NCBI RefSeq assembly: GCF_963921235.1
Contig: NC_086097.1
Location: 30,692,001 to 30,756,000, forward strand
Direction: 5' to 3'
Length of the DNA: 64,000 nucleotides
DNA from: Mobula hypostoma
Lineage: Eukaryota
Of the stretch, positions 2,047 through 30,600 are shown piece after piece. The notes below the pieces were generated by a model that was not told where the DNA came from, did no database searches, and saw nothing but the letters and a program-made list of their open reading frames with translations. Numbering within the stretch: position 1 is the first letter of the stretch; every line of letters starts with the position of its first letter. Made by a program: the position numbers and the translations under genes.

Positions 2047-2583
2047 ATGCTCGGCTGTGAGCAAGTGTGAAGCAGCGGGTCCCGGACGCTCTGCACCAGC
2101 CCGGTTATCGCACGCTCTTCGCCGCCGTTCCCGGACCCACCAGCGCGCGGGAGGGAAGGAGATAGGGGTGGGGCCTAGTAACGCGACAACACCACCTCTG
2201 TCCCGCCCCATGCCGCCTCCCACCAATCGCAGAATCGCCAGCCTTCCTGCCAGCACAGGCCAATCAGCAGCGGGGCCACCTCCCTCTCACCCTCTTCGCC
2301 AATCAGCGCTCAGCAATCGGTCCGATCTGAGCCAATCGCCTCGCTTCTGTATTATTAATGAAATTTTGCCTTGTCGGTGCAGGCGTTGAATAACCCCACA
2401 CAAAATTGGTCGGATAATTAATTTACGTTACATGGTCGGCACAACATTGTGGGCCGAAGGGCCTGTAATGTGCTGTAAATTTCTATGTTCGTTTCTCCGT
2501 TATACTCACATAATGTGTTTCTATTCTCGCTCCTACATGTGTGTGATTATTATGTTCCTGCTTATAGATAACCAAGATGGAGC

Positions 2584-3844
2584 GAAACAACAGAGTGCCA
2601 CGTGGGTGGCTAAAAGTGTGGAAATGTATTGACCGTAATGGAAACATCTGTAAAGGATTGAGAGTCATTGAATGGTTTATTGTACATAATTTTATTTTGA
2701 ATAAAGTATATTTTGAAATAAAAAAACCAAAGGTGGAGCAGGTCAGACAGGCCATCATGCACAAGTACCTGGACAATGGGGGCAAGAACGTCCCCAATGT
2801 TGCCCTGATGGCCAGCTTCGTGTTTGGCGGCATCGGGTTGTGTGTAGAACCCGGATATGTGGGCACCAAGGACCACTATGTGCCCAGGTTCCACCTGTTG
2901 TCCTGGCTACGAAGGATGGGTCTGGCCCCACTCCTGCGCAATGCCCCAGTCAGCTGGTCGTTGCCGCCATACCCGTCCTTCGTAGAAAAGTTCTTCCAGG
3001 ACAACGCCTTTGACCACAGGGCTATCAAGCAGTGGTCAGCACGTAATGTCCTGCAGGCACTGCAGGAGAAGGATGTGATGGACACAGTGGGGTGGTTCCC
3101 TGTGCAGACCGTCCAGTTCATCTGGCAAAATGCCTCATCGCCAGACCCCACCAACAGGCACCAAGGCCTCGCCTGGCTGACGGTGAGAGGGGCCCTCCCA
3201 GTCAGATCCCTCCTGTACGCCCGGGATGTCGTCTCCACACCCCGCTGCCCACTGGAGGACTGCAGTGAGAAGGAGCCTGTGACCCACCTCTTTGCACACT
3301 GTGAGTTCACAGAGAAGGTGTGGAGGAGGATGGACAGGCTAGTGTCACGTTTCATCCCCAGCAGCTGCGTAACAGAGGACTCTGATCCACGGGCTGTTCC
3401 CGGGGATGCACATGGAGACCAACATCCGGTGCTGCTGGCAGATCATCAACTCAGTGAAAGACGCTCTTTGGTCGGCCCGAAACTTGATGATCTACCAGCA
3501 CATGGAGATGTCCGTGGGAGAATGCTGCCAACTGGCACATTCTTGGCTGCAGGAGTACGTGCTGAGGGACACACTGAAACTTGGTGCAGCCACCGCAAGG
3601 GCCCGCTGGGGAAGGACCACGGTTTAGGGTTCTTCTTCCCGCAGGAGTGGGAGGGGACGGGTGGCGGGGAGTATACCCCTCAACAATGGTGTGGAAAGAT
3701 GAAACAACAGAGTGCCACGTGGGTGACTAAAAGTGTGGAAATGTATAGACCATAATAGAAGCATCTGTAAAGGATTGACAGACATTGAATGGTTTATTGT
3801 ACATAATTTTATTTTTGAATAAAGTATATTTTGGTAAAAAAAAA
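2584..3844 (+). mobile_element. L1/Tx1-type non-LTR retrotransposon 3' fragment (ORF2 C-terminus with zf-RVT, 3'UTR, polyA), preceded by a second copy of its 3'UTR
   Basis: Reads WQNASSP..AWLTVRGALPVR..RCPLEDCSEKEPVTHLFAHC, then frameshifts into VKDALWSARN...ARARWG. The 3'UTR with aataaa and an A-tail occurs at both 2584-2727 and 3701-3844. Confidence 0.8.
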
Positions 3845-16993: not shown

Positions 16994-17094
16994 TGATTTG
17001 GTTTTTTTTAACCTTGTGTCTGTCTTTTTTTTATTGGGTTCTTTAGGGTTTCTTGCTTTGTAAGTAGACAGATTTCAAGGTTGTATAATTTATA

Positions 17095-18010
17095 GCAACA
17101 CACATCAAAGTTGCTGGTGAACGCAGCAGGCCAGGCAGTGTCTCTAGGAAGAGGTACAGTCGACGTTTCGGGCCGGGACCCTTCGTCAGGACTAACTGAA
17201 GGAAGAGCTAGTAAGAGATTTGAAAGCGGGAGGGGGAGGGGGAGATCCAAAATGATAGGAGAAGACAGGAGTAGGAGGGATGGAGCCAAGAGCTGGACAG
17301 GAGATTGGCAAAAGGGATATGAGAGGATCATGGGACAGGAGGCCCAGGGAGAAGGAAAAGGGGGGGGGGGAAGCCCAGAGGATGGGCAAGGGGTATAGTC
17401 AGAGGGAGAAAAAGGAGAGTGAGAGAAAGAATGTGTGTGTATATAAAGGGGTATGAGGGGGAGGTGGGGCATTAGCAGAAATTAGAGAAGTCAATGTTCA
17501 TGCCATCAGGTTGGAGGCTACCCAGACGGAATATAATGTGTGGTTCCTCCAACCTGAGTGTGGTTTCATCTCTACAGTAGAGGAGGCCGTGGATAGACAT
17601 ATCAGAATGGGAATGGGATGTGGAATTAAAATGTGTGGCCACTAGGAGATCCTGCTTTCTCTGGCGGACAGAGCGTTCAGCGAAGCGATCTCCCAGTCCG
17701 CGTCGGGTCTCGCCTATATATTTATTTATTTATTTGTTTGTTTGTCCTCTCATATCCCTTTTGCCAATCACCTGTCCAGCTCTTGGCTCCATCCCTCCCC
17801 CTCCTGTCTTCTCCTATCATTTTGGATCTCCCCTTCCCCCTCCCACTTTCAAATCTCTTACTAGCTCTTCCTTCAGTTAGTCCTGACGAAGGGTCTCAGC
17901 CCAAAACGTCGACTGTACCTCTTCCTAGAGATGCTGCCTGGCCTGCTGCGTTCACCAGCAACTTTGATGTGCGTTGCTTGAATTTCCAGCATCTGCAGAA
18001 TTCCTCGTGT
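17095..18010. mobile_element. Penelope-like element remnant with ~235-bp inverted terminal repeats, a GIY-YIG C-terminal fragment and TSD
   Basis: Arms at 17095-17328 and 17745-17978. The minus strand around 17475-17570 reads DETTLRLEEPHIIFRLGSLQPDGMNIDFSNF. ttgtataatttata is duplicated at 17081-17094 and 18011-18024. Confidence 0.82.
17157..17194 (-). ncRNA. Minimal type-I hammerhead ribozyme motif (Penelope-associated)
   Basis: The minus strand reads UAGUC-CUGACGA-A-GGG UCCCGG CCC-GAAA-CG-UC^GACUG: both core boxes, stems I and II, a GUC site and a palindromic ACGU stem III. Confidence 0.72.
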
Positions 18011-19169
18011 TTGTATAATTTATACATATTTGGATAATAAATAAACGTACTTTGAACAGAACAGCACAGTACATGATGTCGCACCAAACATTTAACCTGA
18101 TCCAAAATCAATCTACCAGTTCAGCATGGACTAGATGGGCTGAAGGACCTGTTTCGATGCTGTAGGGGGAGAAAACTTTTGTGTTTCTCATAACCTTCCA
18201 TTTTTTCTTTCATCCATGTGCTTATCTAAGAGTCTGTTAGATGTCCCTAATGCATCAGCCTCTACCACCACCCTGCCAGGGCATTCCACCTACCTACCAC
18301 TCTGTGTAAAAAACTTACCTCTGAAATCCTCCCCATACTTTCCTCCAATAAGCTTGGAATAATGCCTCCAGGGAAACATTCTCTGGCTTTCCAATCTTTC
18401 TATGCCCCTTAGTAGTGGTAGTGCAATCATTTGAGTCAACTGTGATGTTTTCCGAAGTGGTTGTCTATTGGTGGGTCCTCAGATAGCTGTAGAGACCAAT
18501 TTGGGATCCACATATTCTGGTACAGTGTGGGCAAGAGTAATGATGTCTGTGGTTAATGGTTGGGTCATTTGGTCGTTCAATCTCTCCTTTCACAGCTGCC
18601 ACTTGTTCTCTGCAGCACAGCGGAGGTCACTCTCATGTAATGCAACTCCCTCTTGAACAGATTTCCTCCAGGCCTATCTATTGAGTGCAATGTCTTCCCA
18701 GTTTTAGATAGGATATTGAATTTCTTCAGGCTCATTTTGATGATATCTTAGAAGCGTTTCGCTTGCTCATCAGTAGCTTGCTGACCTTCCTTTAATTGGG
18801 AGTAAACGGTCTGTGTGGGGAGACGTGAACTGCGCATTCGGATATCACGACTTATCCAATGGATCTGGTGTTGCTCTATCATGATGGAGATGCTACTCAT
18901 CTTGGCCTCCTCCAGTGTGTTGGTGTTAGTGCATCTGTGTTTCCAGGTGATCCTCAAAATCTTTCATAAGTCTCTTTGGTGGTAATGTCCCATGGCTTTC
19001 AGGTGCCTACTGTAGGTGGTCCATGATTCAGCTCCCCACAGTAATGTAAGATGGACCACTGCTCTGTAGACCTGAAGTTTTGTTTAGACCTGTAGGTCAC
19101 AGTTTTCAAAGACTCTTTTCTTTAATCTTGCAGAGGCTCAACTAGAACTACTGAGGTGGTGGTTGATCT

Positions 19170-19563
19170 CTGAGTCGATGCCTGGTTTTGAAGAGAGAAT
19201 GTTGCCACGGTAGGGATCATTGTCGGCTGTGGTCGGCTGCTTCTAATGCATTTGCGGTTGTTGGTGCCTGAAGGTTTATGGCAGGGAGTTTCTCCCTTTT
19301 GCCGCCTGCTATCGGGGACTCGGGAGTCGATCGGGACTTTGAGACTTTTTTTTACGGTGCCCATGGTCCGCTCTTTATCAAATTATGGTATTGCTTTGCA
19401 CTGCTGTAACTATATGTTATAATTATGTGGTTCTGTCAGTGTTAGTCTTTGGTTTGCCCTGTTTTTCTGTGATATCACTCTGGAGGAACATTGTATCATT
19501 TCTTAATGCATGCATGCATTTCTAAATGACAATAAACGAGGACTGAGTGTTCTCATAATCTAA
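19170..19563 (+). mobile_element. Truncated copy of the (TAATC)-tailed retroposon nested in the RTE
   Basis: Matches 16640-16975 and 56870-57220. Confidence 0.7.
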
Positions 19564-20013
19564 GTGGTTTACATTTTCAAGGGTGGTATCGTCAACTTTT
19601 GTGGAGGGCTATAAAAATGGTTGGTTAGGTGGTGGCTAATATAGGATCTGTGTCTTTTTTATGTTCAAAACAAGATGCATGGCCCTTTATGCCTTGGCAA
19701 AGGCACTCAGGGTTGAAAAGCATGTTGTCCATTCTGTACGTGGTTTGGATTCCCTGTGGCAAGTCTTGGCCGATGAGGTGAAGGATGGCAGCAATAAAGA
19801 CGACAAATAGGGTGGGTGCAGTGATACAGCCCTGCTTCACTCCTGTCTGGACAGTGAACGGTTCTGATACTGCACCACTTTTGCTGAGTACTGTGGCATC
19901 ATGAAGTAGCGTAAGGACGAGTCAAGACAGCCATGTCTTGATAGTATACACCACAGAGCTTGGTAGTCTACCATATCAAATACCTTTGACAAACCTGTGA
20001 AAGGGTTGCCTTT

Positions 20014-20243
20014 ACTTACTTACGTACTCCAACTGGGACATAGGTTACCGACAGCAGCTCGCCAGAGTCCTTTCTTCTGGGCCGATCTTTCAGGTGAAGA
20101 TCCTGCCTCTCCCAGGGATGAGGTCTCTGGAGCTTCTGTTGGTGTTTCTGTAGCTCTGGGTTTTTACAGAATGGGGTTGTTAGCACCATGCCCAACCCTC
20201 CTCCTTTCGCAGCCGGGCTTCTGACCATCCATGGTGGAGGTAC
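20014..20243 (-). mobile_element. 230-bp bipartite RTE-derived SINE with a twister-like 5' head and (TAAG)n tail
   Basis: Perfect 13-bp TSD aagggttgccttt (20001-20013 and 20244-20256). The 3' part reads AQKKGLWRAAVGNLCP followed by gtaagtaagtaa. Confidence 0.8.
20191..20243 (-). ncRNA. Degenerate twister (P1-type) ribozyme 3' cleavage product
   Basis: The minus strand reads GU^AC-CUCC-ACCAUGGAUGG-UCAGAAGC-CCGG-CUGCGAAA-GGAG-GAGGG-UUGGG, compared with the twister pattern U^AA-P2-GC..GG-UCCCAAGC-CCGG..P2'-GAGGG-P1'. Confidence 0.62.
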
Positions 20244-20384
20244 AAGGGTTGCCTTTGCTCACGACATTTTTCCTGCAATTGGCATGCTGTTTTTCTCCTG
20301 TCAACAACAGGCAAAGTGCTTGCACGTATCCTTGACAACCAAGCCCTACTGATATCTGAAAGAGTGCTTCCTGAATCAGAATCA

Positions 20385-21525
20385 GGTTTAATATCTCCGG
20401 CATGGGTCATGAAATTTGTTAACTTAGCGGCAGCCATACAACGTAATACATAATATAGAGAAAAATACATTAAAAATGAGTTACTGTAAGTGTATATGTA
20501 TATATACATTAAATAGTTACATTAAAAATAGTACTGCAAAAACAGGATTTTTTAAAAAGTGAGGTACTATTCATGGGTTCAATGGCCATTTAAAAATCAG
20601 ATGGCAGAGGCGAAGAAGCTGTTCCTGAATCATTGAGGGTGTGCCTTTAGGCTTCTGTACCTCCCCCCCCCCAATGGTAACAGTGAGAAAAGGCCTGTCC
20701 TGGATGATGGGCACCGCTCCTTGAAGATGTCTTGGATACTATAGAGGCTAGTACCCATGATGGAGCTGACTAATGTTATAACTTTCTGTAGCTTCTTTCC
20801 ATCCTGTGCAGTCGCACCTCCCCCACCTCCCCCATACCAGACAGTGATGCAGTCTGTCAGGAAGCTCTCCATGGCACATCTGTAGAAATTTTCAAGTGTT
20901 TTAGGTGACAAACCAAATCTCCTCAAACTCCTCATGAAATATAGCCACTGTCTTGCCTTCCTTATAGCTGCATTGATATGTTGGGACCAGGTTAGATCCT
21001 CAGAGATATTGTCACCCAGGAACTTGAAATTCCTCACTCTCTCCACTTCTGATTCCCTCGATAAGGATCGGTTCGTGTTCCCTCGTCTTATCCTTTCTGA
21101 AGTCCACAATCAGTTCTTTGGTCTTACTGACATTGAGTGCAAGGTAGTTGCTGCGACACCACTCAACTAGCTAGTATATCTCGCTCCTGAGTCCCTAGTC
21201 TCCATCTGAGATTCTGCCAACAATGGTTGTATCATCTGCAGATCTGTAGATGGCATTCGAGCTATGCTTAGCCACACAGTCACGGGTATAGATAGAGTAG
21301 AGCACTGGGCTAAGCACATGTCCCTGAGGTGTGCCAGTGTTCGTCATCAACAAGGAGGAGATGTTACTACCAATCCACACAGATTGTGGTCTTCCAATTA
21401 GGAAATCGAGGATCCAGTTGCAGAGGGAAATACAGAGGCCCAGGTTCTGTAGCTTTTCAATCAGTTCCATTGGAATGATGGTGTTAAACACTGAGCTATG
21501 GTAAACGAACAGCATTCTGACATAG
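20385..21525 (-). mobile_element. Rex1/Babar-like LINE RT 3' half
   Basis: Reads [15 protein letters not shown]...CNWILDFL...[25 protein letters not shown] and FKFLGDNISEDLTWSQH. Confidence 0.78.
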
Positions 21526-27649: not shown

Positions 27650-30600
27650 AACTCCCAAGATTATCTTCCAAGATGGCACCATGTATGACGGCCATGTTGT
27701 GTGCTCCGTTCCAAATCTACAGTATACTACTAATTTCTACGATTTTCTTAGCATTTTCTGTTCAAGTAGCTGACAGTCACATCAGATATGATAGACTGAC
27801 CCTTCTGAACATCAGAAAGATGGCATTTATCCATTATGTGCTGCCTTTCCTACACTGGGATCCCCTGCTTGCGTAATCCATAGGAGGCTCACCTCTTACA
27901 CCCTCATTACCTTGGAAGAAGCGATGGAGGTGAGGGAGAAGGGCCGGCGTCCTGGTGAGGCTGAGATAGTGTGCAAATGGGCCACTACTCACTTGCATAC
28001 TCCTGGCTAATGTTCAGTCCCTGGATAACAAGCTTTGTGAACTGAGAGCCAGAATCTTCTATCAGCAGGAAATGCAACGTTTTGTGCTTTGTGGAGACCT
28101 GGCTGATGGATGAGATACCGAATCATGCCATCAAGCCCTCTGGGTTCTCCCTGTTCCGGGCAGGCAGGTCAGAAAGAAAGCCTCACTGGGAAGAGTAAAG
28201 GAGGAGGAGTACGCTTCATGGTCAACAATGCTTGGTGAGACCCTCAGAATGTGCATGCTCTCAAATCTTCTTGTTCCCCAGACCTGAAATACCTGGTGCT
28301 GCTGTGCAGACCTTACTGGCTGCCTAGGGAGTTCACAGCTGTTATCATCGCAGCGGTGTATATTCTGCTGCAGGCTGGTACTGACCTGGCTCTCAAGGAA
28401 CTGTACGAGACCATCAACACGCTGGAGACTGCACACCCAGAGGCTGCCTTCATCGTCACCGGTGACTTTAATCGAGCGCTGCTGACAAAAGTCTCTCCGA
28501 AGTTTTGTCAGCACATCCAGGTGAACACTCATGGAGATGACACACTTGACCACTGTTACACTCCCTTCTGCAACACTTACAAAGCTCTCCTTCGCCCAGT
28601 TTTTGGAAAATCAAATCATTCTTCGAACCTGCTTTTGCTGAGGTACAGGCAGGAGCTGAAACAAGAGGCGGGCATAGTTAAAACCATCCACTGTTGGTCT
28701 GACCAATCGGCCTCCATGCTGCAGGACTGCTTCGATAAAGTCGACTGGAATGTCTTCCATGATGAGAATGTCTCCGAGTTCACTGATGGAGTCACGTGCT
28801 TCGTCCAGAAGTGCATCGACGATGTTGTCCCCCAGAAGTTGGTCAGGGTCTTCCCGAACCAGAAACCCTGGATCAATAGTTCTGTGCGACCCAGCACTTA
28901 CAGCACGACATCGAACTTACATCGCTGGAGCTCAACAAGAGCTCAAGAAAAGTAGCTATGATCTGCACAAAGCTATCAAGGCTGCAAAACAACAATACAG
29001 GGACAAGACTGAGTCAAGATTCACAACGAATAGCACACGTGACTTGTGGCGAGGGCTGCATACCATCGCAGACTTCAAAGCCAAACGTTGTGGTGCTGCC
29101 AACATCATGGCCTCTCTCCCAGATGAGCTCAATTGCTTTTACGCTCGGTTCGATGTCGCTAACTCTCAGCCTCCGAGGAAAGCCATCACTACAACCTGCA
29201 ACCTGGTCATCTCTGAGGCTGAGGTACGCAGATGTTTCCAACGAGTGGACAGTCACAAGACTGTGGGACTGGACGGCATCCCAGGGCGAGTACTCAGGAT
29301 GTGCGCAGCACAACCGGCAAGTGTGTTTACTCACATTTTTAATCTCTCCCTCTCCCAGTGTAAAGTGCCCTCCTGCTTCAAATTATCCACCATCTTCCCA
29401 ATACCAAAAAAGACCAAGGTAACATGCCTGAACAACCGCCATCCTGTCACACTCACCTCAATAATAAGCAAATGCTTTGAGAGGCTGGTCAAGGATTACA
29501 CCTGCAGCTTGTTACCACCCACACTGGACCCCCTACAATTCGCCTACCAACACAACTGATCGACAGACGACGTGATAGCCACTGCTTTACCTACCATCCT
29601 TACACATCTGGAGAAGAAGGATGCTTATGTGAGAATGCTGTTCGTGGACTACAGTTCAGCATTCAACACAACAGTTCCATCCAGGCTTAACAAGATGCTC
29701 AGAGACCTTGGCCTTGACCCTGCCTTGTGCAACTGGATCCTGGACTTCCTGTCAGATCGCCAGCAAGTGGTAAGAGTGGGCTCCCTCACCTCGACGCCCT
29801 CTGACTCTCAATACAAGAGCCCCTCAGGGCTATGTACTGAGTCCCCTCCTTTACTCCCTTCATACCCATGACTGTATCACCACCCACAGCTCCAATCTAC
29901 TAATAAATTTGCCAACAACACTATATTGATTAGCCTAATCTCAAACAATAACGAGGTGGCCGACAGGGAAGAAGTCATCTCTCTGACACAGTGGTGTCAA
30001 GGGAACAACCTCTCCCTCAATGTCGCAAAAACAAAGGAGCTGGTTGCGGATTACAGCAGGAATGGAGATGGGCTAACCCCTGTTGACATCAATGGATCTG
30101 GGGTTGAGAGGGTAAACAGCTTTAACTTCTTCGGTATCCACATCAGCGAGGACCTCATATGGTCTGTTCACACCAGCTGTGGGGTGAAAAAAGCACAACA
30201 GTACCTCTTTCACCTCAGACGGTTGAGGAAGTTTGGTATGGGCCCCCAAATCATAAGAACTTTCTACAGGGACACAACTGAGAGTATCCTGACTGGCTGC
30301 ATCACTGCCTGGTATGGGAACTGTACCTCCCTTAATCACCGGACTCTGCAGAGTGGTGCAAACAGCCCAGCGTATCTGTAGTTGTGCACTTCCCATGATT
30401 CAGGACACTTTCGAGAACAGATGTGTAAAAAAGGCCTGTAGGATCATTGAGGACCTGTGTCACCCCATCCACAATCTACTCCAGCTGCTACCATCTGGGA
30501 AATGGTACCACAGCAAAAAGTCAGGACCAACAGGCTCTGGGACAGCTTCTTCCACCAGGCCATCAGACTGATAACTCATGCTGATTTGTGACTGCTCTAT

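Follow-up and report, generated by a model that had tools for sequence, protein, structure and literature searches.

The window, meaning the whole 64-kb stretch of DNA that was analysed, contains on its minus strand a decayed, likely dead, non-coding insertion. It is very likely composed of the 5' UTR of an RTE-type LINE and the last 23 codons of its ORF, with ancestors that would have been cut by a twister ribozyme and copied by the LINE. The surrounding sequence is animal DNA rich in repeats, to judge by which it probably comes from a vertebrate. The insertion has the anatomy of a bipartite RTE, i.e. a 5' UTR followed by an RTE 3' end, no ORF, a microsatellite tail and a target site duplication (TSD). 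The features are as follows.

18501..20390, minus strand: host element, an older, broken RTE from a different group (RT match, relatives, protein alignment)
20001..20013, minus strand: target duplication, copy on the 3' side, of which 13 bp survive
20014..20022, minus strand: 3' tail, with a TAA stop and about two TAAG units that lead into the target's AA (sequence)
20023..20091, minus strand: remnant of an RTE ORF C-terminus (ERSAQKKGLWRAAVGNLCPSWST-stop) of the Perere-3-like group (profile, C-termini of P0002-P0029)
20085..20095, minus strand: fusion zone between 5' UTR and ORF end (depth trough at 20084, alignments to L002, L006 and L012)
20092..20239, minus strand: RTE 5' UTR head, nearly the whole UTR (nhmmer 20099-20239, E 9.4e-24)
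20192..20239, minus strand: decayed twister without P3 (Rfam match, alignment of relatives)
20240..20256, minus strand: 5'-side target, the 13-bp repeat at 20244-20256 plus GTAC at 20240-20243

The insertion, its boundaries and its host element

Sequence comparison within the window finds an exact 13-bp direct repeat, AAGGGTTGCCTTT, at 20001-20013 and 20244-20256. When 230-bp intervals were placed at random in the window about 3000 times, none had a flanking repeat of at least 13 bp, and the perfect 13-bp TSD described in the earlier note is borne out. That note had also given the element 230 bp, with the equivalent of the U^A scissile site at 20242/20241. However, these bases continue the reading frame of the host RTE, and contigs that skip the element rejoin at 20240-20243. 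The GTAC at 20243-20240 (minus strand) is the G of a Leu codon followed by a Tyr codon, and the host frame EQRQPLY runs through 20240. The minus strand from 20290 to 20240 gives TACQLQEKCREQRQPLY, with 78% identity to residues 606-623 of P0127, and the Tyr is found at the place of GTAC in seven of the eight host-family proteins long enough to show it. Among the six organism-E contigs listed as skipping the element, beyond which there are at least 38 further rows, three rejoin at 20240, one at 20241 and two at 20243.

Judged by these sequences, host DNA is the most likely source of the U^A at 20242/20241, and the element most likely starts at 20239 and is 226 bp long, not 230. With GTAC as host sequence, this copy would therefore be without both As of the cut site, and its 5' junction, earlier presented as that of a reinserted cleavage product, no longer serves as evidence of cleavage. 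On the other side, the minus strand from 20001 on reads FTGLSKVFDMV where the host family has EKCREHKQPLYMAFIDLTKAFDTV, and the 3'-side target copy is 11 nt shorter than the host RTE family. The original duplication was probably longer than 13 bp, and the last one or two matching T of the repeat may be coincidental. Given a start at 20239, the 13 bp would thus be the remainder of a longer duplication. The simplest history, which we regard as highly likely, would consist of a duplication of at least 17 bp, an element beginning at CTCC (20239) without A1 and A2, and a later loss of 11 nt.

If the first boundary was right instead, GT-A-C would belong to the element as two extra bases, A1 and an A2 changed to C, the TSD would always have been 13 bp, and the target would already have been 11 nt short. 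The 13 bp do match exactly, and AC aligns with the AA of the family without a gap, but four bases must then coincide with the next bases of the host family, which for unrelated sequences has a chance of about 1 in 256, and the host frame PLY runs straight through them. We find this reading improbable, and the start at 20239 is used below.

Organism B has the orthologous insertion (19890-20120, with 3 differences in 231 nt and no gap), and by this comparison the insertion is older than the split between organisms A and B. Organism E has zero depth at 19890-19906, from which the absence of the insertion does not follow.

The host RTE shares about 30% protein identity with the Perere-3-like group, while its own relatives are 65-76% identical to it. 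Its sense runs on the minus strand from 20290 downward, and both flanks of the element lie inside it. An inverted upstream piece (20277-20390, plus strand, residues 557-594 of P0127) meets the minus-strand body near 20280-20290, an arrangement that looks like a 5' inversion of the twin-priming type. The window also holds two broken LINE ORFs, probably of other clades, one with an endonuclease/RT region (28131-30381) and one with a C-terminal zinc-finger-like region (2568-3755), and a 234-bp inverted pair at 17094-17327 and 17745-17978 (95% identity, about 420 bp apart).

No second copy of the element was found in the 64-kb window by blastn, and the next nhmmer match in the window after the element has only E=0.004 over 40 nt. 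A covariance model of 11 relatives has its sole match in the window at 20189-20241, with 55.2 bits, compared with 57-86 bits for ten loci searched. Neither the tail profile described below nor nhmmer finds an autonomous partner RTE in the 64-kb window, and pattern scans of genome contigs and viral contigs gave 0 matches.

The twister-like head and its relatives

The head is 72-82% identical, over 58-152 nt, to RTE heads from marine metagenomes, several of which continue into an APE ORF. The Rfam model twister-P1 (RF03160) matches the minus strand at 20192-20246 with 22.4 bits (E=0.025 on 501 nt), and its gathering score of 67.2 is reached nowhere in the whole 64-kb window. The twister signature earlier noticed on the minus-strand head is present, with P2 CUCC/GGAG, a remnant of L4, GAGGG and UUGG. 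All four P2 pairs (CUCC/GGAG) are kept in this copy, P4 has two Watson-Crick pairs, one GU pair and one mismatch out of four, and the 3' strand of P1 lies at 20192-20195. Under the pairing scheme of the pseudoknots, CCC/GGG for T1 and GC/GC for T2, one of three pairs remains in T1 and one of two in T2, leaving neither intact. The G at 20200, the counterpart of the catalytic G, is kept, and the AA at the predicted cleavage site is missing.

The decay from CCC to CAG (20222, 20221) and from GC to AC (20235), as previously described, is real when set against 11 related heads and the loose-end consensuses of three organisms. The minimum-energy fold of this copy differs from a twister, and P2 and P4 are not formed, a kind of folding that is uninformative for a pseudoknotted motif (z -0.5 to +2.1). 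Variants with 0-1A are inactive according to the part of Liu 2021 (PMC8501958) used here. Because of this inactivity, the remaining T1 (1/3) and T2 (1/2) pairs and the fold without P2 and P4, we predict that this copy is likely dead. It does not qualify as a twister, whereas the family does so on sequence and falls short on the Rfam score.

Seven bases of the TSD (20245-20251, CAACCCU on the minus strand) are complementary to AGGGUUG of the ribozyme at 20193-20199. This complementarity, probably due to chance, could compete with the T1 pseudoknot in a read-through RNA; the CAACCCU/AGGGUUG pairing is missing from the minimum-energy fold.

Scanning metagenome contigs for the motif's 3' half yielded 17 loci, for which conservation in that half is circular, as they were chosen on it. 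All 17 match the head, with 72-90% identity over 54-152 nt. The same head stands before the start of an APE-type ORF (..WNVRTM-like) in seven of the 17 (L002, L003, L006, L009, L011, L012, L017), and the L006 protein retrieves full-length RTE proteins of about 1000 residues with endonuclease and RT, schistosome ones included. For L002, L003, L009 and L012, one family whose members are 90-97% alike, the shared sequence begins at most 3 nt from the AA; the twister is located at the extreme 5' end of the RTE, with the shared sequence ending at the AA.

The majority head of the relatives, AACTCCGCCATGGCCGGTCCCAAGCCCGG, is a twister that lacks both P3 and the 5' strand of P1. With P3 missing, the relatives obtain 24.8-44.3 bits on Rfam twister-P1 (16 of the 17 loci matched), all under the cut-off. 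All five pseudoknot pairs are kept in seven of 11 marine heads, and the cleavage-site AA is present in eight of 11 relatives. On the twister structure, 90% of 130 cells pair, compared with 31-61% in slid controls; for P2 and P4 the paired cells amount to 95% and 90% over 10 distinct rows. In the alignment of the relatives, compensatory base changes were seen in 0 pairs, and the fold therefore rests on likeness to known twisters.

Large internal deletions or truncations are found in twister-headed RTE copies at L012 (1-652, minus strand) and L003. In L012 an APE start is joined to sequence of the RT region, and internal deletion is frequent in this RTE group. One RTE protein of the group, P0002, comes from a 3.5-kb contig labelled as a bacterial MAG and is likely animal DNA binned with a bacterium.

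Contigs from four runs, out of the 24 listed, were aligned on 19890-20370 at 80% likeness. This gave 5594 contigs for X1 (organism A), 5929 for X5 (organism B) and 6593 for X12 (organism E), mostly on the head. X1 is possibly the source of the window itself and gives no independent support. The head is conserved across RTE families, and the aligned contigs mix autonomous and several non-autonomous forms. Since the contigs are mostly less than 95% alike and several CpG sites vary by 25-40%, their sequences point to a family that is old and abundant.

Loose ends behind 20220 (148, 153 and 178 contigs) read AACTCTGCCATGGACAGTCCC on the minus strand. Those behind 20239 (173, 177 and 172 contigs) read TT on the plus strand, i.e. 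AA, after which the agreement is 0.4. These rows are among the best 24 of 1196, a selection in which scattered 5' ends are under-reported and from which no fraction can be derived. The loose-end consensuses, from 148-178 contigs per DNA run, keep UCCC and GC, UCCCAAGC is kept in the family, and many ends gather at the predicted cut site's AA in three organisms. The two features on which the earlier note had staked its reading, pseudoknot pairing in the consensus and 5' ends clustered at the predicted cleavage site, are thus both present at the level of the family. In the family head, P2, P4, the two pseudoknots and the AA are all retained, P3 is missing, and the shared sequence stops at the AA. 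The family differs from the marine relatives at the first P4 pair, with A in place of their C.

Tail, junction and class of the element

We built a profile of the last 60 residues of RTE proteins from 59 full-length proteins (960-1070 residues) among the 120 listed. It matches the tail with 24.8 bits (E=5.8e-9, element in six frames), and there is no other match in the window under E 0.5. This score confirms the RTE ORF end that had been proposed, together with (TAAG)n, for the 3' half; the TAAG tract is short, about two units.

In alignments to L002, L006 and L012 the window head spans almost the whole 5' UTR, to about 20085-20095, and we infer a short sequence common to both sides of the fusion zone. 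The summed depth in X1 is about 300 at 20084; the head reaches about 50,000 and the tail about 1,500. Only one other continuous piece of head and tail, X1 record 2 (20040-20220), is among the 32 pieces listed of 18774, and there are many other head-tail joints, each represented by 1-3 contigs. The loose ends that precede 20100 and 20106 comprise 105-138 contigs per listed row and have the translation TKKMGYTWE, which matches RTE C-termini, e.g. P0014. Because these ends translate as an RTE C-terminus, the commoner derivative has a slightly shorter head and a longer tail, with an estimated length of 255-260 bp. The 226-bp junction of the window is a rare, minority form with more UTR and less ORF than the commoner one. 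A 230-bp family as such, which the earlier note had assumed, could not be upheld, given this rare junction and the commoner longer-tailed form.

A short bipartite element of about 175 bp was found in a marine metagenome (L015, 480-652, minus strand), with intact pseudoknots, an ORF end and a TAAG tail. Its TSD candidate of 8-10 bp overlaps its first bases. By its sequence, L015 is independent of the window element, which indicates that such derivatives arise repeatedly.

In run X9, a contig with a depth of 759 joins 20071 to 20092, with unidentified letters between them. The RNA status of X9 is only guessed; no run is recorded as RNA, and this contig is not taken as evidence of expression. Another loose end in X9 shows a related tail that ends in AAG repeats, not TAAG.

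A SINE transcribed by Pol III was considered and rejected, with no tRNA, no B box and a head that is an RTE UTR. The tRNA search covered 19500-21000. A search with the A- and B-box patterns finds no A box within the first 129 nt and no B box even when 1 mismatch is allowed. RTE UTRs align to the head from its very first base, and 'non-autonomous internally deleted RTE' fits better than 'SINE'. From the proposal of a bipartite SINE family with a ribozyme-made 5' end, we keep the bipartite RTE anatomy, the twister-type core, the AA-clustered ends and the lack of a Pol III box, and drop the term SINE and the use of this copy's junction.

By analogy with Perere-3, a read-through transcript of the host Pol II would enter the element, the flanking sequence would supply the 5' strand of P1, and twister cleavage would leave an RNA with 5'-AA. 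An RTE protein acting in trans would bind the ORF end and the TAAG tail, nick the DNA, reverse-transcribe the RNA and leave a duplication. This copy would have landed inside the older RTE, probably ending 2 nt short of the cut site, with a duplication of at least 17 bp. Later, 11 nt would have been lost from the 3'-side copy, and CpG decay and two transversions would have broken both pseudoknots.

Alternatively, this copy could be a one-off, in which the RNA of a full-length RTE or of a longer derivative lost its interior during or after this one insertion, the 226-bp form was never a unit that replicates, and the ribozyme belongs to the autonomous LINE only. The single other continuous piece among the 32 listed of 18774, the X1 depth of about 300 at 20084 and the joints in 1-3 contigs are what would be expected of such an event. 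However, X1 record 2 does exist, the from_end counts at 20084/20085 (45-46 in X1, 38-39 in X12, 35-36 in X9) suggest further pieces across the junction, and the commoner bipartite junction at 20100/20106 (105-138 contigs in each row listed) demonstrates that derivatives of this kind replicate. A one-off origin is less likely but of some weight, and as it touches the junction only, it is compatible with ribozyme-made 5' ends.

Those ends could also stem from a fixed transcription start. If they come from an internal promoter, or from a stop of reverse transcription on structured RNA, the twister fold would be a non-catalytic relic. This would agree with the missing P3 and P1 5' strand, the Rfam scores under the cut-off, the A of the family in place of the C of the marine relatives at the first P4 pair, and the inefficient cleavage without P1 reported in the accessible part of Liu 2021 (PMC8501958). 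On the other hand, the ends coincide with the exact AA left by twister cleavage, the bases of T1 and T2 are conserved between schistosome and these animals, and de la Pena 2020 (PMC7761336, citing unpublished data) describes the truncated twisters at the 5' ends of RTEs as catalytically competent. We consider a relic unlikely and prefer 5' ends made by a twister in the ancestors of the family. On the widest reading we are evenly divided: a large animal genome, probably that of a vertebrate, would contain thousands of promoter-less mini-RTEs with a minimal twister (no P3, half of P1) as their sole 5' device, which arose repeatedly with differing junctions both here and in a marine metagenome (L015), whose renewed jumping is set by the bases of the landing site, in which the twister is a general substitute for a Pol III head, and of which some copies may still be transcribed and cleave.

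Comparison with known systems

The earlier note gave twisters at the 5' ends of RTE elements, schistosome Perere-3 included, as established, and they are indeed published (Liu 2021, PMC8501958). The part of that paper covered here describes Perere-3 T-variants, 5'-AA cleavage products, a P1 supplied by the TSD and GTAA tails. As far as it is described there, the T-variant of Schistosoma mansoni resembles our element in P2 CUCC/GGAG, GUCCCAAGC, GAGGG and UUGG, in the AA 5' end, in leaving the P1 5' strand to the target, in the GTAA/TAAG tail and in the group of its RTE protein. Unlike it, the element has a 5-nt linker in place of P3, is non-coding and internally deleted and belongs to another animal, and this copy is decayed and without the As. 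The exact AACTCCGCCATGG is not present in the examined portion of the Liu 2021 supplement (PMC8501958), which contains catfish T-variants whose 3' half is the same.

Should the family consensus prove to cleave, the schistosome result would reach to RTE derivatives that are non-coding and reside in a large animal genome, and Kojima's idea that ribozyme-headed LINEs spawn bipartite non-autonomous elements would gain support. Thousands of copies with differing flanks would be a natural test of how a target-supplied P1 affects survival. This copy adds little, being decayed, without the cut-site As and with a junction that is no evidence of cleavage.

Ruminski 2011 reportedly deals with HDV-like ribozymes, to go by its title. 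It is the work cited for ribozymes in Kojima 2018 (PMC5786205), the consulted part of which connects the intact 5' ends seen in bipartite RTEs with self-cleaving ribozymes and names no twister. The bipartite non-autonomous RTEs given there are RTE-N1_Lch (262 bp), RTE-N2_Lch (286 bp) and RTE-N1_ATr (195 bp), and further RTESINE1/2, WALLSI3 and Bov-A. Compared by description only, the RTE-N elements have, like ours, an RTE 5' end and 3' end, no ORF and a similar size; RTE-N2_Lch consists of 214 + 70 bp.

De la Pena 2020 (PMC7761336), in the part used here, describes truncated, active twisters conserved at the 5' ends of the RTE superfamily, as work in preparation. The element follows this general rule. 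Among the titles and abstract openings retrieved from the literature, none reports a twister-headed non-autonomous RTE in a vertebrate; Repbase, Dfam, most subscription papers or the bulk of the Liu 2021 supplement may contain one. As far as these parts go, the ribozyme-headed bipartite RTE set-up is already published (PMC5786205, PMC8501958, PMC7761336), and the element is a further example with no new principle.

The R2 SIDEs of Drosophila (Eickbush and Eickbush 2012, PMC3414825) likewise combine a 5' ribozyme with a LINE 3' end, are promoter-less and use target-primed reverse transcription. Their ribozyme is HDV-like (according to the part of Liu 2021 used), and they are site-specific in rDNA and rare, whereas here we find a twister, non-specific targets and thousands of contigs.
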